Shown one piece after another: positions 964-43,879 of a stretch of 64,000 bases of DNA. Numbering within the stretch: the first letter of the stretch is position 1; each line of letters starts with the position of its first letter. The DNA comes from Mobula hypostoma (lineage: Eukaryota). Position numbers and translations under genes: made by a program. The stretch is from contig NC_086097.1 of NCBI RefSeq assembly GCF_963921235.1, forward strand, positions 112,904,001-112,968,000, read 5' to 3'. The notes beneath the pieces are model-generated. The model worked only from the letters and a program-made list of their open reading frames with translations, made no database searches and was not told where the DNA came from.

Positions 964-1399
964 ACTTAAGTGAAGGCAAATGAAGAATTATGTGTAACCA
1001 GGTGACGGTTGAATATTATTTTTATTGTTAAAAGTGCACATATGTATTCACAACAGTAATGATACAATAGCTGCCTGTGCCTTTAAGAAAAAATGGTAAC
1101 ATCATTGTGCACGTGTGGAGTAGAAAATAAGGGTTACAGTGTTCTAGAAAGCATGGGAGTGCTGGGAGCAGCTTTTCCCCAATGTGCTGGTCGTATGGTA
1201 AGGAAAGATTTTCACATGTAAGGTATCGGCACTGGAGATCATGGTCGAACGAGTTCCTTATCGGCCTAGTAGCGTAAGCAAGAAGAACTGGTTTCAAGGT
1301 CTAGCCCAGGCTACAAAATATGGAAAAGAGGTTTACACTGACAGTCTAACGTGAGGAAGAATCTTCAAATGAACCATAAATGCCTATATTGCATGGTCG

Positions 1400-1720
1400 G
1401 TTTCATAGAGTCATAGAACATTATAGCACAGAAACAGGCCCTTCAGCCCTTCTACTCCATGCCAAACTGTTATTCTACTTAATTCCATCAATCCACACCA
1501 GGCCCATAGCCCTCCATGCCCTTCTCATCCAAATACCTATCCAAACTTCTCTTAAAAGTCGCAATTGAACCCACTTCCACCACTTCTGCTGGCAGCTCGT
1601 TCCACACTTCCACCACTCTCCGAGTGAAAAAGTCCGCCCCCACCCCTGCAGGTTCCTCTTAAACATCTCACCTTTCACCCTTAACCTTTGACCTCTGTTT
1701 TCAGTGCCATACATTCAATC
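1400..1720 (-). mobile_element. CR1 LINE 3' end fragment
   Basis: RGQRLRVKGEMFKRNLQG...FSL is a CR1 ORF2 C-terminus; (ctatgact)-type tail. Confidence 0.7.
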
Positions 1721-1737
1721 ATGGTTGTGACACTGAA

Positions 1738-1837
1738 GCAACACACACAGAATGCTGGAGGAACTCAGCAGGCCTGGCAGTATCCATGGAAAGGAGTAAA
1801 CAGTCAACGTTTCTGGCTGAGACCCTTCATCAGGACT
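1738..1837 (-). mobile_element. Short PLE terminal-repeat copy carrying a hammerhead motif (1801-1837)
   Basis: Minus strand AGTC CTGATGA AGGGTCTCAGCCA GAAA C GTT GACTG, followed by the same 3' terminus as the PLE at 5500-5597. Confidence 0.75.
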
Positions 1838-3079
1838 TCATCTTGAATATAATACTCAGACTCTTTAGACAACAACTCACTCACTCTTCACAGTCAGGTG
1901 CAGGATACAAAGACAATGGCACACGGGATCCCTAATCTCAACACGTCATGGCACTTTCAAGATTTATGCACATATGGTATTCTTAGCTCTTCCAGCCCTG
2001 CCCAATCCCATGAATGATGTTACTTAGTCGCTGACATCAATCCTCAGTTTCCTTCCTTCAGTATGTACTGTATCACTTCACATTACTTTATTTTGAACTT
2101 CATCTGCCAATTTCCTACTCAATCTGCCTGGATCAATATAGTCTATTCCTCTATTTCACATATACTATATGGTGTTGTTCAAGACAACATATCCAGTCCT
2201 AGCACTGAACCCTGTGGAATGTCACTGTCTATAATCTTCCATCTGAAAATCGAGTGTTTACCCTTATCAGCTGCTTTGTGGGACAGGACACTCCACAGAA
2301 CACTCCTTTATCAGTTTTGTTCACCAACTTGTTCACCAATTTAGTCAAATAATTTCTTAAAATTCACACGGATGGCACTTTCTGTATTCCATCATGAACC
2401 TTCCCTATTATCAAAAAATTCTGTCAGGTCAGTCAGACATGATTCACCTTCTACAAGTCTGTGCTGGCTACCCTTATTACCTATCTATCTATGCACAATT
2501 TGTCATCTTTTGTAAATTGGATGTTTGTCAGTTTTTGTTTATGCATAGTTTTTCATAAATTCTATTGTATTTCTTTATTTTCCTGTAAATGTCTGCGATA
2601 AAATGAATCTCAAGGTGACCATATATGTATTTTGAAAATAAACTTACTTTGACTTTATCAATACAAACTCCTCTAAGTGCCAATTACTTTTTATCTGGAT
2701 GATCGTTTCAAAAGCTCCCTCACCACTGAAGTTATTCTATTCAGTTTGAAATGTCTGGGAAAGACAAGATTGTCTTTCTACAGTACTCTAGTGCCTCCTG
2801 CCAGTCTTTTGTTTCAACTTACCTTGGCCAAGTTCCATTCTATTAGATTTCCTAAAACAAGAAGATCAACTTCAAATTTCTCCTCATCCTTCTCCAGTTC
2901 TGAGATAAATCTCACAATTTGATGATCAAGTATTCTCCCAATAATATTTCACTTTCTAGGCCATTTAATTCCTCAACACCAGATCCAGGCCCACCACGCT
3001 CTCTTTCGGGCCCAAACCATATTGGTTCTGGAAGATATTCTGAACATAGCTCAGAAGTTCCACGTGTTCTTTGAACTAA

Positions 3080-3545
3080 AGATGGTGCCTGGACTAGAGA
3101 GCATGCCTTATGAGCATAGATTGAGCAAGCAAGACCTTTGCTCTCTGGAGAATGGGAGGATGAGAGGTGATTTGCTAGAGGTGTATAAGAGACATAGAAT
3201 GAGTGGATAGCCTGAGACTTCTTCCCAGGATGGAAATGGCTAATATAAGGGGGCATAATTTTAAGATGATTGGAGGAAGGTATGGGGGAGGGTGTGGAGA
3301 AGTATGTCAGTGGTATGATTATTTTCTACACAAAGGCTGGTGGAGCATGGAACTCACTGTCAGGAGTGGTGGTAGAGGCAGATACATTAGGGGCATTTAA
3401 GAAATTCTTGCATAGGCACATGGATGATTAAAAATGGAGAGCTATGTAGGAGAGAAGGGTTAGATTCATCTTAGGGTAGGTTAAAAGGTCGGCATATATC
3501 ATTGGTCAAAGGGAGTGTGCTGTGCTTTTCTCTGTGCTGTGTGTT
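3080..3545 (+). mobile_element. CR1 LINE 3' fragment
   Basis: MVPGLESMPYEHRL...SLENGRMRGDLLEVYK and RGHNFKMIG are CR1 ORF2 C-terminal motifs. Confidence 0.75.
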
Positions 3546-4351
3546 GTAATGCTGACATTGAAGTTAATGTTGGTGTATTTGAAATCCTTGAGCATCATTG
3601 TTTTACACTTTCACATCTCCATTAGTCTCCTCTACACTTTCTCTTATTTTGCACTTCTATCTCCAGAAAAAAGCATGACAAAACCCACTCGAATTGCATG
3701 AACATTGGTCCATATCCTGTTGAGGTGTGTCGCACATGTCTGATCTATTTGACCAAAGAATCTTGCCCTACACACCTCTCAAGCACTACATTAATTCAGC
3801 TTATGCTTCTATTTTGCTCCTGCACTGAGAGCATTGAAAAGATTCCTACTGAAGGATGTACCTTCCTCTTCCTAGCTCCTGAAGGAGAGAGACATTATGT
3901 CCTGCTTTTTCTATGTCCTTGTAACAATGTATTCTAAGTGTACTGTCCTGGTTCACATCTTTACTGTTATACTGTAGGTAGTTCATTTAGCAGTTCTGTA
4001 AGAGCAGTCTGTTCTGCTGTCAGCCTGTTTGGGTTATTGTTGAAGATAATGATGTGGAATGTGTGCCATCCAATTACGATGGTGGAACTGGGGGGAGTTT
4101 TTTTTTGGTGAGGGGCACTAAGTTTGGTCTTGGGTCTTTTGTTCGACAGGGAATAAAAAGAGAACTGGTCATATGATATGACCCGGTGGTAGACCCGTTT
4201 ATTCGAGATAGATTGCGAGCAACAGTCAGAAGATGGTGTGAGCTTTCACGCAGACCGAGGGCCCAGCATGTGAGTGCCAGAGAAGTTCAAGATGAACTCC
4301 AACTTGTGCACATTTGACTCTTTATTTAGAATGGGCCCATTTTGTCTTTTC

Positions 4352-5597
4352 ACCCTGTCTCTTGCAAAAACGCCATCCCCTTCTCGCAATTCCTCCGTCT
4401 CCGCCGCATCTGCTCTCAGGATGAGGCTTTTCATTCTAGGACGAGGGAGATGTCTTCATTTTTTAAAGAAAGGGGCTTCCCTTCCTCCACTATCAACTCT
4501 GCTCTTAAACGCATCTCCCCCATTTCACGTACATCTGCTCTCACTCCATCCTCCCACCACCCCACTAGGAATAGGGTTCCCCTGGTCCTCACCTACCACC
4601 CCACCAGCCTCCGGGTCCAACATATTATTCTCCGTAACTTCCGCCACCTCCAACGGGATCCCACCACTAAGCATATCTTTCCCTCCCCGCCTCTCTCTGC
4701 ATTCCGCAGGGATCGCTCCCTACACAACTCCCTTGTCCATTCGTCCCCCCCATCCCTCCCCACTGATCTCCCTCCTGGCACTTATCCGTGTAAGCGGAAC
4801 AAGTGCTACACATGCCCTTACACTTCCTCCCTTACCACCATTCAGGGCCCCAAACTTCACCTGTGAGTCGACTGGGGTGATATACTGCGTCCGGTGCTCC
4901 CGATGTGGCCTTTTATATATTGGTGAGACCCGACGCAGACTGGGAGACCGCTTTGCTGAACATCTACGCTCTGTCCGCCAGAGAAAGCAGGATCTCCCAG
5001 TGGCCACACATTTTAATTCCACATCCCATTCCCATTCTGACATGTCTATCCACGGCCTCCTCTACTGTAAAGATGAAGCCACACTCAGGTTGGAGGAACA
5101 ACACCTTATATTCCGTCTGGGTAGCCTCCAACCTGATGGCATGAACATTGACTTCTCTAACTTCCGCTAGGCCCCACCTCCCCCTCGTACCCCATCTGTT
5201 ACTCTTTTTAATGCACACATTCTTTCTCTCACTCTCCTTTTTCTCCCTCTGTCCCTCTGAATATACCTCTTGCCCATCCTCTGGGTCACCCCCCTCCCGT
5301 CTTTCTTCCCGGACCTCCTGTCCCATGATCCTCTCGTATCCCCTTCTGCCTATCACCTGTCCAGCTCTCGGCTCCATCCCTCCCCCTCCTGTCTTCTCCT
5401 ATCATTTTGCATCTCCCCCTCCCCCTCCAGCTTTCAAATCCCTTACTCACTCTTCCTTCAGTTAGTCCTGACGAAGGGTCTCGGCCTGAAACGTCGACTG
5501 CGCCTCTTCCTATAGATGCTGCCTGGCCTGCTGCGTTCACCAGCAACTTTGATGTATGTTGCTTGAATTTCCAGCATCTGCAGAATTCCTGTTGTTT
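4352..5597 (+). mobile_element. 5'-truncated Penelope-like element (RT thumb/linker, GIY-YIG endonuclease, terminal repeat)
   Basis: KNAIPFSQFLRLRRICS...CKRNKCYTC, then after a frameshift near 4852 GVIYCVRCSRCGLLYIGETRRRLGDRFAEH...E...GMN (GIY-YIG). Perfect 15-bp TSD CCATTTTGTCTTTTC at 4337-4351 and 5598-5612. Confidence 0.93.
5463..5500 (+). ncRNA. Minimal type I hammerhead ribozyme motif in the PLE terminal repeat
   Basis: Stem I TAGTC/GACTG; core CTGACGA (5468-5474); stem II AGG/CCT; GAAA (5488-5491); loopless palindromic stem III ACGT; GUC triplet with predicted cleavage after 5495. Confidence 0.85.
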
Positions 5598-9419: not shown

Positions 9420-10470
9420 TCACAAGAGATCCTGCAGATGCTGGAAAATCCAGAGCAGCACACACAAAATGCTGGAGGAACTCAGCAGCTCAGCCAACAT
9501 ATACAGTACTGAATAAAGGGTCAACGTTTCAGGCCGTGACCCTTCATCAGGACTGGAAAGGAAGGGGGATAGTGCCAGAAGAAGAAGGTGGAGAAATGGA
9601 GAAGGAGGACAAGCTAAAAGGTAATAGGTGAAGTTCAATGGGCAGCGGGAATGGGGGGGGGTGATGAAGAAAGGAGCAGGGAGGTAATAGACAAATGGCC
9701 ACAGAAGAAAGAAACTGATAGGAGAAGAGAATGGATCATGGGAGAAAGGGAAGGAGGAGGGACACCAGGGGAAGGTGATTGGCAGGTGAGGAAAAGATGT
9801 AAGAAACCAGAGTGGGGAAATGAAGAAGAGGGAAGGGGAGGGGGGAATTATTACTGGAAGCTGGAGAAATCGATATTCATGCCACCAAGTTGGGGGCTAC
9901 CTAGACAGAATATGAGGTGTTCATCTTTCAGCCTATGAGAGGCCTCATCATGGCAGAAGAGAAGGCCATGGACCACCATGTTGGAATGGGGATAGGAATT
10001 GAAGTTGTTGGATTCCGGGAATTTCCACTTCTTGCAGATGGAGTTGAGGTGTTTGACAAAGCTGTCCCCCAATCTACTTTGGATACTATATTTAGAAGGC
10101 CAAATCAGGAGCACCAGATACAATAGACGACCCCAACAGATTTGCAGGTGAAGTGTTGTCTCACCTGGAGCAGGTGTAGTACTTCTGCCACTTGCAGGGA
10201 TAAATGCCAGGAGGGAAATTAGTGGGTCAAATAGGCAAGGGGATCATGGATGGAGCAATCCCTGCAGAAAGCTAAGATTGGGGGAGGAGGGAAAGATGTG
10301 TTTGGTGGTTAGGTCCCGTTGAAGATTATGGAAGTTGCAGAGAATGAAGTGTCGGATACAGGAGCTCATGGGGTGGAAAGATGTCCAGGAAATGAAGGAG
10401 ATACAGATAAAGATAGCATCAATAGTGGAGGAAGGGAAACCCCATTCCTTGAAGAAGGAGGACATCTTCA
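9420..10470 (-). mobile_element. Degenerate Penelope-like element with hammerhead motif (9518-9555)
   Basis: ORFs MSSFFKEWGFPSSTIDA and HLIFCLGSPQLGGMNIDFSSF are homologous to 4352-5170. Minus strand CAGTC CTGATGA AGGGTCACGGCCT GAAA C GTT GAC. Confidence 0.85.
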
Positions 10471-11330
10471 CCCCCTCTCCTCTTTCTGCTTTACACGGGG
10501 ATCACTTTTCCCACTCGTTCCTCCACACAGTTGTCAGTGTTACACCTACCCCAATCCCTCTTCCCTTACCACCAATCAGAACCCAAACAATCCTCCCAGG
10601 TGAAGCAGTCCTCCACTTGTGAATTTATTGCCATTATTTATTGCATTCTATGCAATTTCATCAATATCGGTGAGACATGATGCAGATTAGTGAAAATCAC
10701 TTTGTTGAGTATTTTCACTCCATTCCCTGTGGCAGGCAGGATCTCCTGGTGGCCAGAAATCTTACTTCCACTTTCCACACATACACCGATCTGTCTGACC
10801 ACAGCTTGAAGGAGTAGCACCTCATAGACGTGGTAGTCTCCAGCCACATGGTATGACCATGAATTTTTCCAACTCCTGGTAACCACTCCCCTCTCCCGTA
10901 CTCTCCATGTTTTCCCTTGTCTTACCGGCACCAATACCTTATCTCCTTCCCCCTCTCCATCCCTCTCGATCTGCCTATCACTCACACATTTCTCCTTCCA
11001 GTTCCCTTTCTCACCTCCTTCCCTTTATTCCATGGTCCACTATCCATTCCTATCAGACTCTATCTTATTCAGTCCTTTGTCACTTCCATCTATTACCTCC
11101 CAAGTTCTTACATCATTCCCATTCCACCCTCCTTATTGTCTGGCTCTCAGCTGGATCCACCTGTCACCCTCCAGCTCTTCAACCCCTCCCTGCACCATTT
11201 TACACCAGCTATCTCCCCGCTTCTTTCTCAGTCTTGAAGAAGGGCCTCGATCCAAAACGTCGACTGTCCTTTTCCCTCCATAGATGCTGCCTGAATGGCT
11301 GAGTTTCTCCAGCATTTTGTGTTTTGCTTT
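10466..11330 (+). mobile_element. Degenerate Penelope-like element 3' part, head-to-head with the previous copy
   Basis: Decayed GIY-YIG region, CT-rich UTR and the same terminus. Hammerhead core mutated (TTGAAGA...AAAA) at ~11229-11266. Confidence 0.75.
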
Positions 11331-11334
11331 ACAA

Positions 11335-12300
11335 TGAGTCTTTAGCTTCCCAGGGCTTTCTCAGTCCACCAAAAATTATTTAGCTCCCTCACCCTGCGCT
11401 GGACATTAGCTTTGACCTTGAGGTAAGCTTCTCTTTTGGCCTTGCTGCCAATGTCATTCTACCAGGCACAAAAGTCTTTCCTTTTCTTGGAGATAAGATG
11501 TTCTATCTCCATGCTGTTATCATCAGACCAATCCTGATGTTTTCTGAACTTGTACTCAAGAATGTTTTTGCAGGTATTAAGGATGGTACATTTAAGCAGA
11601 CCTCAGTGTTCTTCGACATCCTTTGCATATTCCCATTGGAGGTTTTCCCTAAACGGGGCCCGAAGGTGCTGCTGGGTGGCAGCGTCAAGCAGGCTTGCAA
11701 TTTTTAGTCTTGGCCTGGTCTGCTTCTTATGAACTCTCTTCTTTCTCATGAGTCTACTGGACATGAGGAAGCGGATCAGAAGAAGATATGTCCTGCAGTA
11801 ATCTGTGCTAATCATGGCTCTTGTAATATTCACATCACGGTGGTCCCCAGCTTGGACAAGGACCTAGTTAATGAGATGTCACTGCTTAGATTGGGCTGCC
11901 AAGACCCCTTGAATTTGTTTTTCTGGCAAAGAGAGTGTTTATGAAGGTAAAATTGTGCTTAGCACACATAGTGAGAAATAGTTCTCCATTTGAGTTGATG
12001 TTGCCAGTGCCTTCCTTTCCTATGGTACCCATCCAAAGTTTGAAGTCCTGACTGACTCTGGCATTGAAGTCCCCTAAGAGAATTATCTTATCCTCCTTGA
12101 AGATGCTTGACAGTGTCACATCTAGGCGAGCGTAGAAGACCACTTTTTCATTATCATGTGAATCCTGAGTAGATGCATAAGCACTCACGATGGCTGCCAT
12201 CTAGTTGTTGGAAAGCAACAAATGGATCGTCATGAGATGTTCACTGGTCCCCATGGGAAATTCAGAGTTGGCTAACAGACTAGTTCTTTATAGGAAACCC
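11335..12300 (-). mobile_element. RTE-clade LINE fragment (APE endonuclease)
   Basis: IVSAYAST...FYARLD...DKIILLGDFNARV...GTGNINSNGELFLTMCAKHNFTFINTLF is an RTE/BovB-type endonuclease. Confidence 0.8.
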
Positions 12301-14760: not shown

Positions 14761-16534
14761 TTGTAATAATTCCCTTTACTCCATTGCAATACTAATACGT
14801 CTGACTTTAGCTACTCCTTCTCAAATTTCAAGGTGTATTCAATCATATTATGATCACGTTCCCCAAGTGTTCTTTTACCTTAAGCTCTCTAATCACATCT
14901 GGTTCATTACTCAACACCCAATCCAGAATAGATGATCACCTGGTGGGCTCAACCACAAGCTGCTCTAAAAAGCCATCTCACAGGCACTCTAGAAATTTGC
15001 CCACCTGAATCTAGCACCAACCTGATTTTCCCAATCTACCTACGTACTGAAGTCGCCCATGACTATCGTAACATTGCCCTTTTGGCATAAGTTTTCTCTT
15101 TCCCATTGTAACTTGTAGACCACACCCTTACAACTGTTTGGAGGTCTATATACAACTCCCACCAGAGTTTTTTTTATCCTTGCAGTTCCTTAGCTCTACC
15201 CTCAATGATTCAACCACTCCCGAACCTATTTCACCTCTTTCTAATGATTTCATCTCATTTTTTACCAACAGAGCAACACCACACCCTCTGCCTTCTTGTC
15301 TGTCCTTTTGATACAATGTGTATCCTTGGACATTAATTTCACAGCTATAATCTTTTTCAGCCATGATTCAGTGATGCCTAGAACATCATACAAGCCAATC
15401 TGCAACTGCATCACAAGTTCATCTGCCTTATTCCATATACTGTGCGCATTCAAATATAAGACCTTCAGTCTCATATTCACCCTTTTCAATTTTCTCTGCC
15501 TGTTACATTGCAACTCATTCTGTTGACTGCAATATTGCCCTGTCAACAGCCTCTCCTCACTACACATTGCCCCTGTTTGTAAACCAGCTACCTCACCTTC
15601 AGCACTATCATCCACCTTTCCTACAATAATTCTTGCTTTGAATTATACACAGCTCAGGACACTAGTCGCATCATGCTCAACCTTTTGATTCCTAACTTTG
15701 TCTGAGGTTTTACCAACATCTGTCTCCACAACTTCTCCACTAACTGTCCATTCAATCTAGTTTCCACCCCTCTGCAACTCTAGTTTAAACCCAACCATGC
15801 TGCATTAACAAACCTTCCTGCTATGATACTACTCCCCCTCCAGTTCAGATGCAAGCTGTTCCTTCCTTCTTTTCAGGTTCCATCTTCCCTGGAAGAGAGC
15901 CAAATGATCGAAAAAAAATGTTATGTCCTCCCTCTTACACCAACTCCTTAGCGACGTAGTAAACTAGATAATCTTCCTATTTCTGGCCTCACTAGCTCAT
16001 GGCACGGGTAGCAATCCAGAGATCGCAACTCTAGAGTCCTACCCTTAAACTTAGCACCTAACTCCCTGAACTCCCTATGCAGAACCTCATCACTTGTCAT
16101 TACTCATGTCATTGGTACCTACTTGGATCACCACTTCTGGCTGCTCACCCTCCAACTTAAGAATGCTGAGGACTCGATCCGAGATACCCCAGACCCCGGC
16201 ACCCGGGAGGCAACATACCATCCAGGAACCTCGTTCTCACCCACAGAAACTCCTGTCTACTACCCTAACTAATGAATCCCCTGTCACCGTCGTATGCCTC
16301 TTCTCCCTCCTTCTCTTTTGAGCCGCAGAGCCAGATTCAGTTCCAGAGACCTGACCGCTGTGACTTTCCACTGTTAGGCCACCCCACCCCCCCAACAGTA
16401 TCCAAAGTGATATTACTGCTGTTGAGGGGGGTGGCCACAGGAGTACTGAGCGCTGGCCTCTTAATTCCTTTCCCTTTCCTGACTGTCACTTAGTTTTCTG
16501 CGTCCTGTACTTACTGTGTAACTACCTCTCTATA

Positions 16535-16728
16535 GGGGTGTATCGGGTGTCAGGGAGGGGTAGCACCTCTGGTGGGGGAACATGTCGCGTCCTTTTCAGG
16601 GCGGTTTGTCCACCTTTGGTCCCCACCTGGCACTCAACTCTCACCTGTGGCTCCCCATAGCTGTTTGCATGCGACAGCAGCCACATCCCAGGCAACAGCT
16701 TCGACAAGCCGGCTAAACCAGGTGAGGG
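16535..16728 (+). ncRNA. HDV-like self-cleaving ribozyme fold (decayed copy)
   Basis: P1 GGGGTGT/ACATCCC; P2 CTCTCACCTGT/A(C)CAGGTGAGGG; P3 GGC/GCC; L3 TCCCCAT plus an inserted hairpin; (A)GGCAAC-P4(GCTT-CGAC-AAGC)-GGCTAA with the catalytic-C equivalent at 16713. Confidence 0.75.
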
Positions 16729-17085
16729 TAGCCAATGGGTCTCAAACCCTTGGTGAGATAGCGAGTTGTCTATCCCAGAATATGAACACAGACTCCGGTG
16801 GATTGAGTGGACGAGACCAATGGAAGATCCAACGGTCAAGAACGCAGTCTCTGCAAGCGTTGTGGAACGTTTAGAGCAGGACAAGACACAGAAGACGTCC
16901 TGGTCACCCACTGCGCCTAGTCCCATCTCCAGCCATCTCGACTCTGTCTTGCCACTGGATCCAGATGGGAATTGGGAAGAGAGGGTGAGGCTGAAGCTGC
17001 ACAACTCTCCCTCACTTAAATCCAAATCATGCATCATAATGGTGTTGTGGTCCTCATCGACGACAATGATGGACGAACATGACTG
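16535..17085 (+). mobile_element. 551-bp non-coding retroposon (probably RTE-mobilised) with a 5' HDV-like ribozyme
   Basis: Exact 11-bp TSD ACCTCTCTATA at 16524-16534 and 17086-17096 splits CR1 ORF1. No credible ORF inside. Confidence 0.85.
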
Positions 17086-17739
17086 ACCTCTCTATATGTC
17101 CGATCTGTCACCCCCTCAGCCTCCTGAATGATCCGGTGTTCATCCAGTTCCAGCTCCAACTCCTTAATGCAGATCGTTGGAATCTGCAGCTGGATGCACT
17201 TCTTGCAGTTGTAATCGCCAGGGACACTGGAGGTCTCCCTGTCTTCCCACATCCGCAAGAGGAGCATTCCATTATCCTGCCTGGCAGCTCTACTGTCCTA
17301 GCTGAGGAGATATAAAGAAGAGAAGGGAAAAAAACTTCTTAACCTTAAGCTTTTCTTTCCTCTTCTTTAATTTCTCTGTCTGAAGTCTCCCTCTGTTGAA
17401 GCCTCGAAGAGCTAAAGCCTCAAGATCACCTCTCTGACTCTGTCCACTCTGACGATGGCCACTGTAACAATGGCCGCTGCATTGGTCCCTGCCTTCCTTT
17501 AATTTGCTTTTGCTAATCAATCCCAAACACCAACTGGTCATTGGTCAAAGCTTTCTTTCACTGTAGCGACCCGCTGCTGGCTTTTCGATTTGGGCAGTGG
17601 ACCTGAGTGAAACCCTCTCCTCTCAAAATTTCTGATGTCCGGATTGGTCACTAGTCAAAGCTCTTTTTCATTGGCACTCACGTGGCCCACCGCTATGACT
17701 GCCTTTTTGTCAGAGACATGGAACAGTCCATGTTCTGTG

Positions 17740-33228: not shown

Positions 33229-33442
33229 CTTATTCGATCGCAGTGACACCCGTCCTCCACACCGAGCACAGAATTTTGTTTGGCAATATGAACAGATGTG
33301 GCCACAGCCATCGGCAAACTTGGTCTTGTGACAGATTCCACAGGTGGGTGCATCACTAGTCTTCTGTTCCTGTTGTTGCTGGGCTTCATCGCCCATCTTC
33401 TTTACCTGATCCTTGTACATCTCAAACTGCTGGTGCAATTTC
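33229..33442 (-). CDS. RIMS2: RIMS2 (RIM2-alpha) internal coding exon: end of Rab3-binding helix and first part of the zinc finger
   Basis: Translates to KLHQQFEMYKDQVKKMGDEAQQQQEQKTSDAPTCGICHKTKFADGCGHICSYCQTKFCARCGGRVSLRSNK. EMYK, KKMG, QQQQEQK, YCQT and SNK are RIMS2-type rather than RIMS1-type residues. Acceptor cctgcag|G follows a pyrimidine tract; donor AAG|gtaaag. Length 214 nt = 1 nt + 71 codons. Confidence 0.96.
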
Positions 33443-36393: not shown

Positions 36394-36460
36394 GGTGATC
36401 TGCACCCTGCCCAGGAGATCCGCGCCCTGCCCAGGAGTACCATGCACTTCCCAGGAGGAG

Positions 36461-39400
36461 CCTCTAGCCTCTGGCCTCCAACAAAGCCTCTAGCTTCAAG
36501 TCTCTAGCCTCTAGCCTGAAGACTCCAGACTCCTGCCTCCTGCCAAGCCTCGCCTCAAGTCTCTAGCCTCTAGCCTGAAGACCCCAGTCGCCTGCCTCCT
36601 GCCAAGCCTTGCCTCAGGTCTCTAGCCTCTAGCCTGAAGACTCCAGCCTCCTGCCTCCTGCCAAGCATCGCCTCAAGTCTTTAGCCTCTAGTGTGAAGAC
36701 TCCAGCCGTCTGCCTCCTGCTAATCCTCGCCTCAGGTCTCAGGCCTCTAGCCTGAAGACTCCAGCACCCAGTCTCCTACCAAGCTTCGCCTTAAGTCTCC
36801 AGCCTCCTGCCAAGCCTTGCCTCAACTCTCCAGCGTCCTGCCAAGCCTTTCTTCAAGTCTCTGGCCTCTAGCCTCCTGCCCAGCCTCACATCAAATCTCT
36901 AGCCTCCTGCCAAGCCTCACCTCAAGTCTCTAGCCTCTAGCCTCCTGCCAAGCCTCGCATCAAGTCTCTAGCCTCCAGCCTCCTGCAAAGCCTCACCTCG
37001 TCTCCAGCCTCCTGCCAAGCCTTGCCTCTAGTCTCTAGCCACTAGCCTCCTGCCAAGCCTCGCCTCAAGTCTCCAGCCACCTGCCAAGCCTCTAGCCTCC
37101 AGCCTCCTGCCAAGCCTTGCCTCAAGTCTCCAGCCTCCTGCCAAGCCTCGCCTCAAGTCTCTAGCCTCCAGCCTCCTGCCAAGCCTCACCTCATCTCCAG
37201 CCTCCTGCCAAGTCTCGCCTCAAGTCTCCAGCCACCTGCCAAGCCTCGTCTCTAGTCTTTATCCTCGAGCCTCCTGCCAAGCCTCACCTCAAGTCTCCAG
37301 CCTCCTGCCAAGTCTCGCCTCAAGTCTCCAGCCACCTGCCAAGCCTCGTCTCTAGTCTTTATCCTCGAGCCTCCTGCCAAGCCTCACCTCAAGTCTCCAG
37401 CCTCCTGCCAAGTCTCTAGCCTCCAGCCTCCTGCCAAGCATCGCCTCAAGTTTCTAGCCTCTAGCGTGAAGACTCCAGCAGCCTGCCTCCTGCTAATCCT
37501 CGCCTCAGGTCTCAGGCCTCTAGCCTGAAGACTCCAGCATCCAGCCTCCTGCCAAGCTTCGCCTTAAGTCTCCAGCCTCCTGCCAAGCCTTGCCTCAACT
37601 CTCCAGCGTCCTGCCAAGCCTTTCTTCAAGTCTCTGGCCTCTAGCCTCCTGCCAAGCCTCACATCAAATCTCTAGCCTCCTGCCAAGCCTCGCGTCGTCT
37701 CTAGACTCCTGCCCAGCCTCACATCAAATCTCTAGCCTCCTGCCAAGCCTCACCTCAAGTCTCTAGCCTCTAGCCTCCTGCCAAGCCTCACCTCATCTCC
37801 AGCCTCCTGCCAAGCCTTGCCTCTAGTCTCTAGCCACTAGCCTCCTGCCAAGCCTCGTTTCTAGCCTCCAGCCTCCTGTCAAGCCTCGCCTCAAGTCTCC
37901 AGCCTCGTGCCAAGCCTCGCCTCAAGTCTCTAGCCTCCAGCCTCCTGCCAAGCCACACCTTGTCTCCAGCCTCCTGCCAAGCCTCGCCTCAAGTCTCCAG
38001 CCACCTGCCAAGTCTCTAGCCTCCAGCCTCCTGCCAAGCCTCGCCTCAAGTCTCTAGCCTCTAGCGTGAAGAATCCAGCCACCTGCCTCCTGCTAATCCT
38101 CGCCTCAGGTCTCAGGCCTCTAGCCTGAAGACTCCAGCATCCAGCCTCCTGCCAAGCTTCACCTTAAGTCTCCAGCCTCCAGCCAAGCCTTGCCTCAACT
38201 CTCCAGCGTCCTGTCAAGCCTTTCTTCAAGTCTCTGGCCTCTAGCCTCCTGCCAAGCCTCGCATCAAATCTCTAGCCTCCTGCCAAGCCTCGCGTCATCT
38301 CTAGACTCCTGCCCAGCCTCACATCAAATCTCTAGCCTCCTGCCAAGCCTCACCTCAAGTCTCTAGCCTCTAGCCTCCTGCCAAGCCTCACATCGTCTCT
38401 AGCCTGCAGCCTCCTGCCAAGCCTCACCTCATCTCCAGCCTCCTGCCAAGCCTTGCCTCTAGTCTCTAGCCACTAGCCTCCTGCCAAGCCTCGTCTCTAG
38501 CCTCCAGCCTCCTGCCAAGCCTCGCCTCAAGTCTCCAGCCTCGTGCGAAGCCTCGCCTCAAGTCTCTAGCCTCCAGCCTCCTGCCAAGCTTCACCTCGTC
38601 TCCAGCCTCCTGCCAAGCCTTGCCTCTAGTCTCTAGCCTCCAGCCTCCTGCCAAGCCTCGCCTCAAGTCTCCAGCCTCCTGCCAAGCCTCGCCTCGTCTC
38701 TAGCCTCCAGCCTCCTGCCAAGCCTCACCTCGTCTCCAGCCTCCTGCCAAGCTTTGCCGCTAGTCTCTAGCCACTAGCCTCCTGCCAAGCCTCGCCTCAA
38801 GTCTCCAGCCACCTGCCAAGCCTCATCTCAAGTCTTTAGCTTCGAGCCTCCTGCCAAGCCTCACCTCAAGTCTCCAGCCTCCTGCCAAGTCTCTAGCCTC
38901 CAGCCTCCTGCCAAGCCTTGCCTCGTCTCCAGCCTCCTGCCAAGCCTCGCTTCATCTCCAGCCTCCTGCCAAGCCTCGCCTTAAGTCTCTAGCCTCCAGC
39001 CTCCTGCCAAGCCTCACCTCATCTCCAGCCTCCTGCCAAGCCTCGCCTCAAGTCTCCAGCCTCCTGCCAAGCCTTGCCTCTAGTCTCTAGCCACTAGCCT
39101 CCTGCCAAGCCTCGCCTCAAGTCTCCAGCCACCTGCCAAGCCTCATCTCAAGTCTTTAGCCTCGAGCCTCCTGCCAAGCCTCACCTCAAGTCTCCAGCCT
39201 CCAGCCAAATCTCTAGCCTCCAGCCTCCTGCCAAGCCTCGCCTCATCTCCAGCCTCCTGCCAAGCCTCGCCTTAAGTCTCTAGCCTCCAGCCTCCTGCCA
39301 AGCCTCACCTCGTCTCCAGCCTCCTGCCAAGCCTAGTCTCTAGTCTCTAGCCACTAGTCTCCTGCCAAGCCTTGCCTCAAGTCTCCAGCCACCTGCCAAG

Positions 39401-42400
39401 CCTCGTCTCAAGTCTTTAGCCTCGAGCCTCCTGCCAAGCCTCACCTCAAGTCTCCAGCCTCCTGCCAAGTCTCTAGCCTCCAGCCTCCTGCGAAGCCTCG
39501 CCGCAAGTCTCCAGCCTCCTGCCAGGCCTCGCCTCAAGTTTCCAGCCTCCTGCCAAGCCTCGCCTCGTCTCTAGCCTCCAGCCTCCTGCCAAGCCTCACC
39601 TCGTCTCCAGCCTCCTGCCAAGCCTTGCCTCTAGTCTCTAGCCACTAGCCTCCTGCCAAGTCTCGCCTCAAGTCTCCAGCCACCTGCCAAGCCTCATCTC
39701 AAGTCTTTAGCCTCAAGCCTCCTGCCAAGCCTCACTTCAAGTCTCCAGCCTCCTGCCAAGTCTCTAGCCTCCAGCCTCCTGCCAAGCCTCGCCTCAAGTC
39801 TCCAGCCTCCTGCCAAGCCTCGCCTCAAGTCTCCAGCCTCCTGCCAAGCCTCGCCTCAAGTCTCCAGCCTCCTGCCAAGCCTCGCCTCGTCTCTAGCCTC
39901 CAGCCTCCTGCCAAGCCTCACCTCGTCTCCAGCCTCCTGCCAAGCTTTGCCTCTAGTTTCTAGCCAATAGCCTCCTGCCAAGCCTTGCCTCAAGTCTCCA
40001 GCCACCTGCCAAGCCTCGTCTCAAGTCTTTAGCCTCGAGCCTCCTGCCAAGCCTCGCCTCAAGTCTCCAGCCTCCTGCCAAGCCTCGCCTGAAGTCTCCA
40101 GTCTCCTGCCAAGCCACGCCTCGTCTTTAGCCTCCAGCCTCCTGCCAAGCCTCACCTCGTCTCCAGCCTCCTGCCAAGCATGCCTCTAGTCTCTAGCCAC
40201 TAGCCTCCTGCCAAGCCTCGCCTCAAGTCTCCAGCCACCTGCCAAGCCGCGTCTCAAGTCTTTAGCCTCGAGCCTCCTGCCAAGCCTCACCTCAAGTCTC
40301 CAGCCTCCTGCCAAGTCTCTAGCCTCCAGCCTCCTGCCAAGCCTTGCCTCGTCTCCAGCCTCCTGCCAAGCCTCGCCTCATCTCTAGCCTCCAGCCTCCT
40401 GTCAAGTCTCGCCTCAAGTCTCCAGCCTCCTGCCAAGCCTCGCCTCAAGTCTCCAGCCTCCTGCCAAGCCTCGCCTCGTCTCTAGCCTCTAGCCGCCTGA
40501 CAAGCCTCGCCTCGTCTCCAGCCAGCTGCCAAGCCTCGCCTCAAGTCTCTAGCCTCCAGCCTCCTGCCAAGCCTCGCCTCAAGTCTTCAGCCTCCTGCCA
40601 AGCCTCGCCTCAAGTCTCCAGCCTCCTGCCAAGCCTCACCTCATCTCCAGCCTCCTGCCAAGCTTTGCCTCTAGTCTCTAGCCACTAGCCTCCTGCCAAG
40701 CCTTGCCTCAAGTCTCCAGCCACCTGCCAAGCCTTGTCTCAAGTCTTTAGCCTCGAGCCTCCTGCCAAGCCTCGCCTCAAGTCTCCAGCCTCCTGCCAAG
40801 CCTCGCCTGAAGTCTCCAGTCTCCTGCCAAGCCACGCCTCGTCTTTAGCCTCCAGCCTCCTGCCAAGCCTCACCTCGTCTCCAGCCTCCTGCCAAGCTTT
40901 GCCTCTAGTCTCTAGCCACTAGCCTCCTGCCAAGCCTCGCCTCAAGTCTCCAGCCACCTGCCAAGCCTCGTCTCAAGTCTTTAGCCTCAAGCCTCCTGCC
41001 AAGCCTCACCTCAAGTCTTCAGCCTCCTGCCAAGTCTCTAGCCTCCAGCCTCCTGCCAAGCCTTGCCTCGTCTCCAGCCTCCTGCCAAGCCTCGCCTCAT
41101 CTCTAGCCTCCAGCCTCCTGCCAAGCCTCGCCTCAAGTCTCCAGCCTCCTGCCAAGCCGCGCCTCGTCTCTAGCCTCTAGCCGCCTGCCAAGCCTCACCT
41201 CAAGTCTCCAGCCATCTGCCAAGCCTCGCCTCAAGTCTCTAGCCTCTAGCCTCCTACCAAGCCTCGCCTCAAGTCTCCAGCCTCCTGCCAAGCCTCGCCT
41301 CAAGTCTCCAGCCTCCTGCCAAGCCTCACCTTGTCTCCAGCCTCCTGCCAAGCTTTGCCTCTAGTCTCTAACCACTAGCCTCCTGCCAAGCCTAGCCTCG
41401 TCTCCAGCCACCTGCCAAGCCTCGTCTCAAGTCTTTAGCCTTGAGCCTCCTGCCAAGCCTCACCTCGTCTCCAGCCTCCTGCCAAGTCTCTAGCCTCCAG
41501 CCTCCTGCCAAGCCTTGCCTCGTCTCCAGCCTCCTGCCAAGCCTTGCCTGATCTCTAGCCTCCAGCCTCCTGCCAAGCCTCGCCTCAAGTCTCCAGCCTC
41601 CTGCCAAGCCTCGCCTCAAGTCTCCAGCCTTCTGCCAAGCCTCGCCTCGTCTCTAGCCTCTAGCCGCCTGCGAAGCCTCGCCTCAACTCTCCAGCCATCT
41701 GTCAAGCCTTGCCTCAAGTCTCTAGCCTCTAGCCTCCTGCCAAGCCTCGCATCAAGTCTCTAGCCTCCAGCCTCCTGCCAAGCCTTACCTCGTCTCCAGC
41801 CTCCTGCCAAGCCTCTCTTCAAGTCTCCAGCCTCCTGCCAAGCCTCGCCTTGTCTCTAGCCTCCTGCCAAGCCTTGCCTCTAGTCTCTAGCCACTAGCCT
41901 CCTGCCAAGTCTCGCTTCAAGTCTCCAGCCACCTGCCAAGCCTCGTCTCAAGTCTTTAGCCTCGAGCCTCCTGCCAAGCCTCACTTCAAGTCTCCAGCCT
42001 CTGCCAAGTTTCTAGCCTCCAGCCTCCTGCCAAGCCTCGCCTCAAGTCTCCAGCCTCCTGCCAAGCCTCGCCTCAAGTCTCCAGTCTCCTGCCAAGCCTC
42101 GCCTCGTCTCTAGCCTCCAGCCTCCTGCCAAGCCTCACCTCGTCTCCAGCCTCCTGCCAAGCTTTGCCTCTAGTCTCTAGCCACTAGCCTCCTGCCAAGC
42201 CTTGCCTCAAGTCTCCAGCCACCTGCCAAGCCTCGTCTCAAGTCTCCAACCTCCTGCCAAGTCTCTAGCCTCCAGCCTCCTGCCAACCCTTGCCTCGTCT
42301 CCAGCCTCCTGCCAAGCCTCGCCTCGTCTCTAGCCATCTGCCAAGCCTCGCCTCAAGTCTCTGGCCTCCAGCCTCCTACCAAGCCTCGCCTCAAGTTCCA

Positions 42401-42965
42401 GCCTCCTGCCAAGCCTCACCTCAAGTCTCCAGCTTCCTGCCAAGCCTCGCCTCAAGTCTCCAGCCTCCTGCCAAGCCTCGCCTCAAGTCTCTAGCCTCTA
42501 GTCTCCTGCCAAGCCTTGCCTCAAGTCTCCAGCCTCTAGCCTCCTGCCAAGCCTCGCCTCAAGTCTCCAGCCACCTGCCAAGCCTCGCCTCAAGTCTCCA
42601 GCCTTCTGCCAAGCCTCGCCTCAAGTCTCCAGCCTCCTGCCAAGCCTCGCTTCAAGTCTCCAGCCTCCTGCCAAGCCTTGCCTCGTCTCTAGCCTCTAGC
42701 CTCCTGCCAAGCCTCGCCTCAAGTCTCCAGCCTCCTGCCAAGCCTCACCTCAAGTATCTAGCCTCCAGCCTGCTGCCAAGCCTTGCTAGTCTCTAGCCTC
42801 TAGCCTCAAGCCTGAAGACTGCAGCCTCCTGCCTCCTGCCAAGCCTTGCTTCTAGCCTCTAGCCTCAAGCTTGATTACTCCAACCTCCTGCCTCCTGCCA
42901 AGCCTCACCTCTAGTCTCTAGCCTCAAGCTTGAAGACTCCAGCCTCATCCTGCCTGCCAGCCAAG
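36461..42965. repeat. ~6.5-kb minisatellite with 31-bp core unit and 29/38-bp variants
   Basis: Unit CCAGCCTCCTGCCAAGCCTCGCCTCAAGTCT, with optional CTAGCCT insertions and larger duplicated blocks. Confidence 0.97.
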
Positions 42966-43879
42966 TCTCATCCTTGCTTAGTTCTGGGGTCCGAGCCAGA
43001 GGCAAGACCCAGTTACTGGGTCCTTGTACAGTCTCTGGCTTGGAGTCCAAGCCAGGGCTCCTATCTCTCTAGTCCAGTCCTGTTCCGGGTTCCCGGTTTT
43101 TGTGTCCATATCCTTGCCCTCACCCTGTATCCTAGTCCAGGCCCTAGTACTTCAGTGTCTGTGTCTTGCACTTAGCTCCGTTCCTAGCCACCTCCGTATG
43201 ACACTTCCTCTATTCTTCATAACAAACTCCTCCTGCTCCTTCACTCTCTGTGGCCTTGATGGCATTTTGTCTATGGTGAGGCTGCATTAATAAAGACCAG
43301 CACAAATGCTTCTCTACAATATATGCTCAACGCCTAGTGGAAAGTGCCTAGTGCACAGAGTGGTCTTGCAAATAGGTGACTAATCTTCACATTCCCATGT
43401 CCATCCACCAAAGTCATGGACCCTGCCAGTGGCAGGCTTAGTGGTCCTGGTCGGTGGTGACAACACAACAGGCAGTGAGGGCCGACATGGTAGCACAGTG
43501 GGTACCACAACACTTTACAGTACCAGCAACCTGAGTTCATTTCCTACTACTGCCTGTAAAGAGTTGGTACACTCTCCCCGTGACTGTATGGGTTTTCTAT
43601 GGGTGTTCCGGTTTCCCCCCACAGGCCAAGGACAGACCAGTTGGTAGGTTAATTGGTCATTGTAAATTGTCCTGTGATAGGCTAGAATTAAATTAGCTGA
43701 TTGCTGGGTGGTGCGGCTCAGAAGGCCAGAAGGGCCTTTTCTATGCTGTGTGTCAATCAATCAATCATTCAATCAATCAAATTTCCCAGGGCCATGATCT
43801 GTTCACTTTAGTCTTAGTAGCAAATCATAAACACAAGAGATTCTGCAAATGCTAGAAATCCTGAGCAACATATACAATA

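Follow-up and report, generated by a model that had tools for sequence, protein, structure and literature searches.

A predicted HDV-like ribozyme with a hairpin in L3 at the 5′ end of a non-autonomous RTE family

HDV-like ribozymes have been reported in LINEs of the RTE, R2, R4, Baggins/LOA and Ingi/L1Tc groups (Ruminski 2011, via PMC5786205 and PMC6765202), and cleavage in vitro has been shown for the R2 SIDEs (PMC3414825) and for the short trypanosomatid elements NARTc, RIME and SIDER (PMC4035085), as well as for NARTco, a deleted LINE headed by a ribozyme (PMC4035085). In marsupials, MAR4_MD, RTESINE2 and WALLSI3 were described as bipartite non-autonomous RTE elements (Kojima 2018, PMC5786205). 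These papers, together with PMC13708176, PMC6007223, PMC10879173 and those cited below, were used as partial texts, and statements based on them apply to the parts covered.

The element analyzed here lies in a stretch of 64,000 nucleotides (the window). Like the R2 SIDEs, NARTc, RIME and SIDER, it belongs to a family of short, internally deleted LINEs with an HDV-like ribozyme fold at the head; those elements are of the R2 and Ingi clades and come from flies and trypanosomatids, whereas the present family is of the RTE clade, comes from a vertebrate and is dispersed in thousands of copies. Ribozyme-headed deleted LINEs are an already known class, of which the family is a new member. It shares with the marsupial elements a part of an RTE 5′ UTR, the extreme RTE 3′ end, a microsatellite tail and the absence of any encoded protein (PMC5786205). 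Opossum MAR4_MD 347–552 parallels positions 358–560 of the family consensus, in that blocks are shared and the two parts join at the corresponding position (PMC5786205); the present family differs in being much younger and in belonging to another host lineage, the comparison with MAR4_MD covering nt ~345 onward.

Three turtle elements are similar (PMC5786205): RTE-11_PSi 371–529 was ~92% identical by eye to consensus 358–516 (~11 substitutions plus 1 gap over 159 nt), RTE-2_CPB 363–521 contains the same blocks, and RTE-1_PSi 3726–3767 has the same terminal hairpin and tail. RTE-11_PSi, RTE-2_CPB, RTE-3_AMi and RTE-1_MD encode endonuclease-RT and were compared over the sequence beyond the first 350 nt (PMC5786205). 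The similar offset in RTE-11_PSi suggests a 5′ head of similar length; two ribozyme motifs had 0 occurrences in the part of the PMC5786205 supplement that was searched. If the host is not a turtle, the likeness to RTE-11_PSi (window about 16892–17035) is high for DNA that does not code and a possible sign of horizontal transfer.

The element, its host gene and its family

The element is delimited by an exact pair of 11-bp TSDs (Table 1), which sets its first base at G16535, as proposed in a preliminary description made from the letters of the window. The positions that this description gave for P1, P2, P3, L3, the hairpin, P4 and C16713 were all correct, and its placement of the element antisense to RIMS2 agrees with the match between a minus-strand exon and the RIM2 zinc finger, the element being on the opposite strand. 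From this exon, the one located, we infer that the element sits within a RIMS2 intron. The exon marks the host as a vertebrate, and the repeats around the element may be of shark or ray type. The 64-kb window contains no second copy of the element. Relative to the family consensus, the window copy has 33 substitutions, 17 of them at CpG sites, and one 15-nt deletion. Elsewhere in the window are a 6.5-kb tandem array, rich in C and built of short, diverged units, with GC about 0.60 and strong skew (36459–42970), two fragments that we take to resemble the GIY-YIG region of Penelope-type retroelements (4274–5167 and 9854–10501) and, on the minus strand, what is presumably a decayed RTE-like endonuclease fragment (11345–12200), separate in place from the element.

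Table 1. Positions of the element, the parts of its predicted ribozyme and the host exon in the window
Feature	Positions	Strand	Basis
5′ TSD copy, 11 bp	16524–16534	+	same letters as 17086–17096
Whole element, 551 nt, bipartite non-autonomous RTE copy	16535–17085	+	TSD bounds, family consensus
P1 5′ strand; G16535 = G1, predicted cleavage site	16535–16541	+	alignment, descriptor, copy starts
Structured J1/2 domain, P1.2-type, with 10-bp closing stem	16545–16635	+	folding z-scores
P2 5′ strand, 11 bp	16638–16648	+	9/11 pairs invariant in 5 sequences
P3 5′ strand	16649–16651	+	3/3 pairs invariant
Canonical L3 part with the U, the two Cs that pair in P1.1, and the conserved C and G (G decayed to A16657 in window copy)	16652–16659	+	positions per PMC6326823 (part covered)
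Extra hairpin at 3′ side of L3; stem 16660–16664/16674–16678	16660–16678	+	kept in four lineages
P3 3′ strand (16680–16682) and P1 3′ strand (16683–16689)	16680–16689	+	alignment of 5 sequences
P1.1 3′ strand; GG in family, AG in window copy	16690–16691	+	copy counts
P4 stem-loop, 16696–16701/16706–16711; first pairs weakened by A16697	16696–16711	+	pair switch between lineages
J4/2 with predicted catalytic C16713	16713–16716	+	C in 78/81 copies; aligns to RF02682 J4/2
P2 3′ strand, one bulged C	16717–16728	+	alignment of 5 sequences
Remainder of RTE 5′ UTR-derived part	16729–17036	+	likeness to L091, group-2 RTE, RTE-11_PSi
RTE 3′-end-derived part: terminal hairpin and short tail, which is (CAA)n or (CCAA)n in most other copies	17041–17085	+	group-2 RTE 3′ end, RTE-1_PSi 3726–3767
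3′ TSD copy	17086–17096	+	same letters as 16524–16534
RIMS2 zinc-finger exon (host gene)	33229–33441	−	RIM2 zinc finger PDB 2a20, E 5e-26

The genome searched comprised 3.48 Gb in 200 contigs. The element as query returned 5,614 first-look candidates, and the 40 that were scored were all near full length. A pattern for the ribozyme core (P2, P3 and J4/2) had 2,639 exact matches, a mixture of the young family and older relatives, vs 0 for the reversed control. The consensus, derived from 30 loci, is ~560 nt long and ends in a (CAA)n or (CCAA)n tail. Over 88 distinct copies, which were the best matches and hence skewed toward young ones, divergence was 1.8% outside CpG and 9.6% at CpG sites. An older subfamily, known from one copy in L078 (75% identity over 436 nt), short pattern matches and contig loose ends, gave 7,074 genome candidates when used as query, of which 40 were scored. 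A young copy lies ~60 nt behind this older copy in the same orientation (L078:812–2102). In 3/88 copies (L064, L075 and L078), another short element, tRNA-like by eye, was inserted near consensus 514–518, inside a perfect 11-bp hairpin joining the two RTE parts; the shared insertion goes back to a single inherited event or else marks an insertion hot spot. Ten organisms had low proportions of the words of the element in their sequencing data; of the 24 sequencing runs listed, none is recorded as RNA.

The family carries the marks of TPRT, namely variable TSDs, 5′ truncations and occasional 5′ inversions. One copy (L044) has an inverted 5′ piece (nt 1–79), as twin priming makes. Among the 88 sampled copies, 50 started at nt 1 and 2 at nt 10, in line with the expectation that 5′ ends pile up at G1, and the first base was G in 50/50 copies reaching nt 1. 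When copies were chosen by their last 81 nt only (n = 29), 10 began at nt 1 and 16 within nt 1–10, while the other 13 had scattered starts from nt 48 to 411, one of them with a 5′ inversion that reaches nt 1. The 25 bases upstream of the 50 full-length copies had nothing in common beyond an excess of T at −1 (T in 33/50, G in 2/50), which was not counted as ribozyme evidence because this base is supplied by the target site. In sequencing run X19, summed contig depth rose from 928 to 263,278 across the 5′ boundary and 125 contigs switched to unrelated sequence just before G1; the run is possibly from the same or a close species and so not fully independent, and its contigs show no RNA ends or strand. 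From the pile-up of starts, the unrelated upstream sequences and the contig breaks in X19, G1 is the genuine first base of the family.

The predicted ribozyme fold

In the consensus, five helices (P1, P1.1, P2, P3 and P4) occur in nested double-pseudoknot order, with a 7-bp P1 beginning with the pair G1–C155, an 11-bp P2, a 3-bp P3, two C-G pairs in P1.1 and a 6-bp P4. P1 and P3 are thus intact, and no sequence 5′ of G1 is shared between copies, as the preliminary description required of a consensus. J4/2 is C-U-A-A, with the catalytic-C candidate, C179, present in 5/5 aligned sequences. The G1–C155 pair is also present in L091, an autonomous LINE from a metagenome contig, and the L3 U, C and G and the two C-G pairs of P1.1 are present in the young consensus, a group-1 RTE of the same genome and L091. 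Read from its letters, the consensus carries every HDV-like core element, and a ribozyme is predicted.

As in LINE HDV-like ribozymes and drz-Agam-2-1 (PMC4908430), the predicted cleavage site is at the first base of P1, J1/2 is long and structured, P2 is ~12 bp and C is first in J4/2; unlike in the LINE ribozymes, a conserved bulge interrupts P2 close to the core, a C 2 bp from it in 5/5 aligned sequences. The consensus agrees with the conserved positions of PMC6326823, in the part covered, except at the second base of J4/2, this joining segment being C-U-A-A here and in RF02682 and C-R-R-A in the design descriptor of that paper. A UAA triplet occurs in J4/2 (window 16713–16716) of the short element and of both LINEs; Drosophila R2 LINEs retain a stop codon in J4/2, whereas the SIDEs have lost it (PMC3414825). 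J1/2 folded with a z-score of −2.65 in a young copy and −2.56 in L091; the inner sequences of the two align poorly, yet both fold stably. In drz-Agam-2-1, a structured J1/2 and a long P2 raise cleavage speed (PMC4908430).

A strict HDV-like descriptor, which was composed after the sequence was known, matched the consensus and L091 and 0/3,000 dinucleotide shuffles of the first 200 nt of the consensus. Its relaxed form, run on both strands of the window (128 kb of strands), gave one match, at 16535; the window copy passes the relaxed descriptor only, and the single old-subfamily, group-1 and group-2 copies failed. Over the five aligned sequences, 91% of cells were paired vs 37–50% with slid partners. 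On this alignment the core helices are invariant rather than covarying: three pairs change on both sides, which 98/500 shuffles reach in this set of four lineages (three of them single-copy), and the covariation across P1–P4 that the preliminary description looked for was not significant. One P4 pair changes from C-G to G-C between lineages, and does so in contig loose ends as well. With Rfam, the window copy had no HDV family among 17 weak matches, and a young copy matched only RF02682 (HDV-F-prausnitzii), at 12 bits and E 8.9 vs a gathering score of 44. The lack of a significant Rfam match, the weak covariation and a descriptor tailored afterward are what would be expected if the fold were an accidental pattern in a GC-rich retroposon head, a reading considered highly improbable given the 0/3,000 shuffles, the one relaxed match in 128 kb of strands, the same fold and start in a distant LINE and the reports of HDV-like ribozymes at RTE 5′ ends (PMC5786205).

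An endogenous deltavirus-like or retrozyme element was rejected as an identification, since the fold is branched, no hammerhead was matched in Rfam and both ends are RTE-derived. Deltavirus-like agents have a rod-like genome and delta antigen, and retrozymes carry hammerhead ribozymes in repeats.

The departures of the window copy from the ideal fold at A16657, A16690 and A16697 had been ascribed to CpG decay, and this was confirmed: the consensus has CpG sites there, with G in 73/79, 71/79 and 69/79 copies, respectively. Further changes in this copy are A16679 (a fourth CpG decay), T16686 (turning a G-C pair of P1 into G-U), C16544, T16607 and A16637. As CpG decay has cost the L3 G, one P1.1 pair and one P4 pair, the window copy probably no longer cuts itself.

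Derivation from RTE LINEs and proposed mobilization

By its sequence relationships, the element is non-autonomous and derives from an RTE LINE by internal deletion: ~515 nt of RTE 5′ UTR run into the terminal ~40 nt of an RTE. Scanning metagenome contigs with a pattern returned 1 locus, L091, a full-length LINE with a 1,096-codon frame containing endonuclease and RT domains and with a similar 3′ hairpin; its first 15 nt are those of the consensus, to which it is 76% identical over 305 nt (consensus 80–380). The L091 protein gave 44 matches in the genome of the window, which form group 1 (5 rows, 55–60% identity) and group 2 (39 matches, 48–52%, of which 4 are without stops). In one group-1 copy, the ribozyme is shared (82% over 217 nt) and the 3′ end differs. 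One group-2 copy is 77% identical over 282 nt to consensus 232–505 in its 5′ UTR and shares the 3′ terminus and tail (29/35 aligned columns match); its intact ribozyme is lost and only a fold relic is left, so the ribozyme would not be needed for every RTE of the lineage. The preliminary description had linked the element to RTE, which the parts shared with L091, the group-1 and group-2 RTEs and RTE-11_PSi bear out. The autonomous RTE near-identical at both ends that it had called for was not found in this genome, where two junction patterns for such a parent LINE had 0 matches, a result that does not by itself show its absence.

For L091 and the two LINE groups, Pfam gives only endonuclease and RT and the ESM Atlas only generic endonuclease-RT clusters, and they are placed provisionally in the RTE clade by motifs and by their resemblance to the 5′ UTRs and 3′ ends of named RTEs. 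Viral contigs contained 0 matches to the strict pattern, none to the L091 protein and 1 chance match to the loose pattern; 7/7 loose-pattern matches in genome contigs were unrelated. Neither the window nor the first 90 loci contained recognizable RTE protein fragments, the motifs seen there being presumably CR1- and L2-like. The six frames of the element contain no RTE motif. Two open frames of the consensus, one of 116 codons in sense (reached by 352/1,000 shuffles) and one of 186 codons in antisense (12/1,000), were rejected because stops interrupt every one of the six frames in the three tested relatives. A Pol III SINE was also rejected: no tRNA (ARAGORN), no B box and no such Rfam match were found, and there was one loose A-box-like match at nt 195. 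With RTE-derived ends and neither tRNA head nor B box, the element is classed as a bipartite non-autonomous RTE rather than a Pol III SINE; of the earlier term, ribozyme-headed SINE-like family, the ribozyme-fold head is retained and the SINE-like character is dropped.

The young group-2 RTE has as its head a GC-rich, frameshifted fragment similar to methylmalonyl-CoA epimerase (TIGR03081, E 1e-23), seen at L096:600–921 and at L092:1–200 (G000:C50), upstream of an intact group-2 frame. The epimerase-like head had 16 matches at 91–100% with staggered 5′ ends, 7 of which share the strand of a listed group-2 frame and lie ~1 kb upstream of it. The group-2 LINE thus seems to have swapped its ribozyme head for a captured gene piece. 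In L091, the last ~20 nt of the RTE are duplicated after its tail, and about 1250–4740 of the contig (minus strand), head to head with the RTE, is an element with RT, RNase H and recombinase-like frames, which we take to be DIRS-like.

We consider it probable that the family is a deleted RTE derivative whose 5′ end is freed by the ribozyme and which uses RTE protein in trans. Pol II transcription from neighboring host sequence would read through a copy; the ribozyme would then cut 5′ of G1, with C179 as the catalytic base, to release the element's 5′ end; and an RTE protein supplied in trans would bind the 3′ hairpin and (CAA)n tail and copy the RNA into a new site, leaving the insertion products observed in the family (variable TSDs, 5′ truncations and occasional 5′ inversions). 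The likeliest supplier of the protein would be the young group-2 RTE family, which has the same 3′ terminus. Some findings count against this model: among copies, the ribozyme region is no better conserved than the rest (1.7% vs 1.8% non-CpG divergence), and in the older subfamily A replaces the conserved L3 C, a change resembling one in an inactive R2 ribozyme (PMC3774820). The core was fully consensus in 10/50 copies that reach nt 1.

The pile-up of starts at G1 fits cleavage and a promoter start alike, so that release by self-cleavage is proposed here and not read from the copies. The G1 end could stem from a Pol II promoter within the RTE 5′ UTR, with the fold vestigial or mainly protective or protein-binding; in L1Tc and NARTc, Pr77 acts as a promoter as well as a ribozyme (PMC3383444). 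Such an origin would suit the recent spread of the group-2 RTE with only a fold relic in the copy read and the altered conserved L3 base of the older subfamily, and is nevertheless judged unlikely, because the predicted cut falls on the first nucleotide to the base in both the short element and a LINE diverged by 24%, and because little or no variation is seen between lineages in the catalytic C, P1.1 and P3.

The L3 hairpin and the wider meaning of the family

L3 is 28 nt long in the family and 26 nt in L091, vs 7–8 nt in the HDV and CPEB3 ribozymes in the literature covered. The preliminary description had called the extra hairpin unusual and had tied it to the short element, and the latter does not hold: the hairpin is kept, with every cell paired, in the young family, the older subfamily, the group-1 RTE and L091, and on this distribution it is inherited from autonomous RTEs and not special to the short element. 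Its stem has 5–6 bp and its loop contains the palindrome GCATGC. In isolation it was not more stable than shuffles (z −0.9, and +0.7 in L091). The group-2 copy has, at the matching place by eye, a hairpin with two pairs exchanged within its broken core; automatic alignment did not recover the homology, and the match is taken as a lead only. A descriptor that left no room for an insertion in L3 had no match. The L3 7-mer in the core primer for Drosophila R2 (PMC3414825) is identical to that of the group-1 RTE and one base off that of the family; in the primer, P3 closes right after the 7-mer, whereas here a hairpin of 17–19 nt precedes the 3′ strand of P3. Since L3 is not closed directly by P3 after 7–8 nt, the fold was filed as a variant of the canonical short-L3 form.

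In the HDV crystal structure, the L3 bases just before the site of the hairpin face the solvent. This position would explain how the fold could tolerate the hairpin, which is proposed to be an inherited peripheral insertion. CPEB3 ribozymes dimerize in crystals via L3 palindromes (in the part of that literature covered), and by analogy dimerization through the palindromic loop is a possibility here.

P3 can grow to 6 bp at the expense of pairs in P1 and P2, and this competing helix is invariant in 5/5 aligned sequences; the minimum-energy fold of the window copy shows the extended-P3 misfold, which counts against the model of a ribozyme-freed 5′ end. The 7-nt strand of P1 (window 16535–16550) repeats at nt 10–16 in the family and L091, giving a candidate second cut at G10; the window copy is without the repeat (C16544). 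A switchable ribozyme, cutting at G10 via the repeated strand or after remodeling of the L3 hairpin and extended P3 by a protein or a second RNA, would make use of these features and of the loop palindrome, and the descriptor accepts G10 as well as G1 as the start of P1 in both the consensus and L091. We regard such a switch as improbable, since starts at nt 10 are far outnumbered by those at nt 1 among the 88 copies and the G10 strand is engaged in a J1/2 stem.

No hairpin in L3 of an HDV-like ribozyme, and no such family, was found in the full-text literature covered; figures, Repbase, Dfam, Ruminski 2011, Webb 2009 and Webb and Luptak 2011 were outside this scope and may hold the hairpin or a name for the family. 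Within the literature covered, the hairpin may be a new structural variant. A further reading, which we put forward tentatively and regard as rather doubtful, is that a widespread RTE lineage (in this genome, a distant metagenome contig and probably turtles and marsupials) bears an undescribed, active L3-hairpin subclass of HDV-like ribozymes, with the hairpin as a working module for rate control, dimerization or binding of RTE protein.

By itself the family is mainly an annotation result, the type of element being already known. The genome does offer a natural comparison between a ribozyme-headed short element with thousands of copies and a young RTE with a replaced head. PMC5786205, in the part covered, asks if the ribozyme is the reason that only a few LINE clades give rise to deleted derivatives, and this pair makes the question testable. 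RTE-1_MD with its UTRs has been used as a gene-writing platform (source covered in part); as it is also a relative of the family in the 5′ UTR, its 5′ end is worth checking for the fold.

L3 belongs to the active site and is short in the ribozymes characterized so far, and a conserved natural hairpin there would widen the known limits of the fold, would offer a new site for engineering and would point to a class missed by standard searches. If the subclass exists and is active, searches with fixed-length descriptors would miss it, RTE 5′ UTRs used in RNA-based gene writing may contain the same unrecognized ribozyme, and host transcripts in this genome could be cut by hundreds of intact copies.
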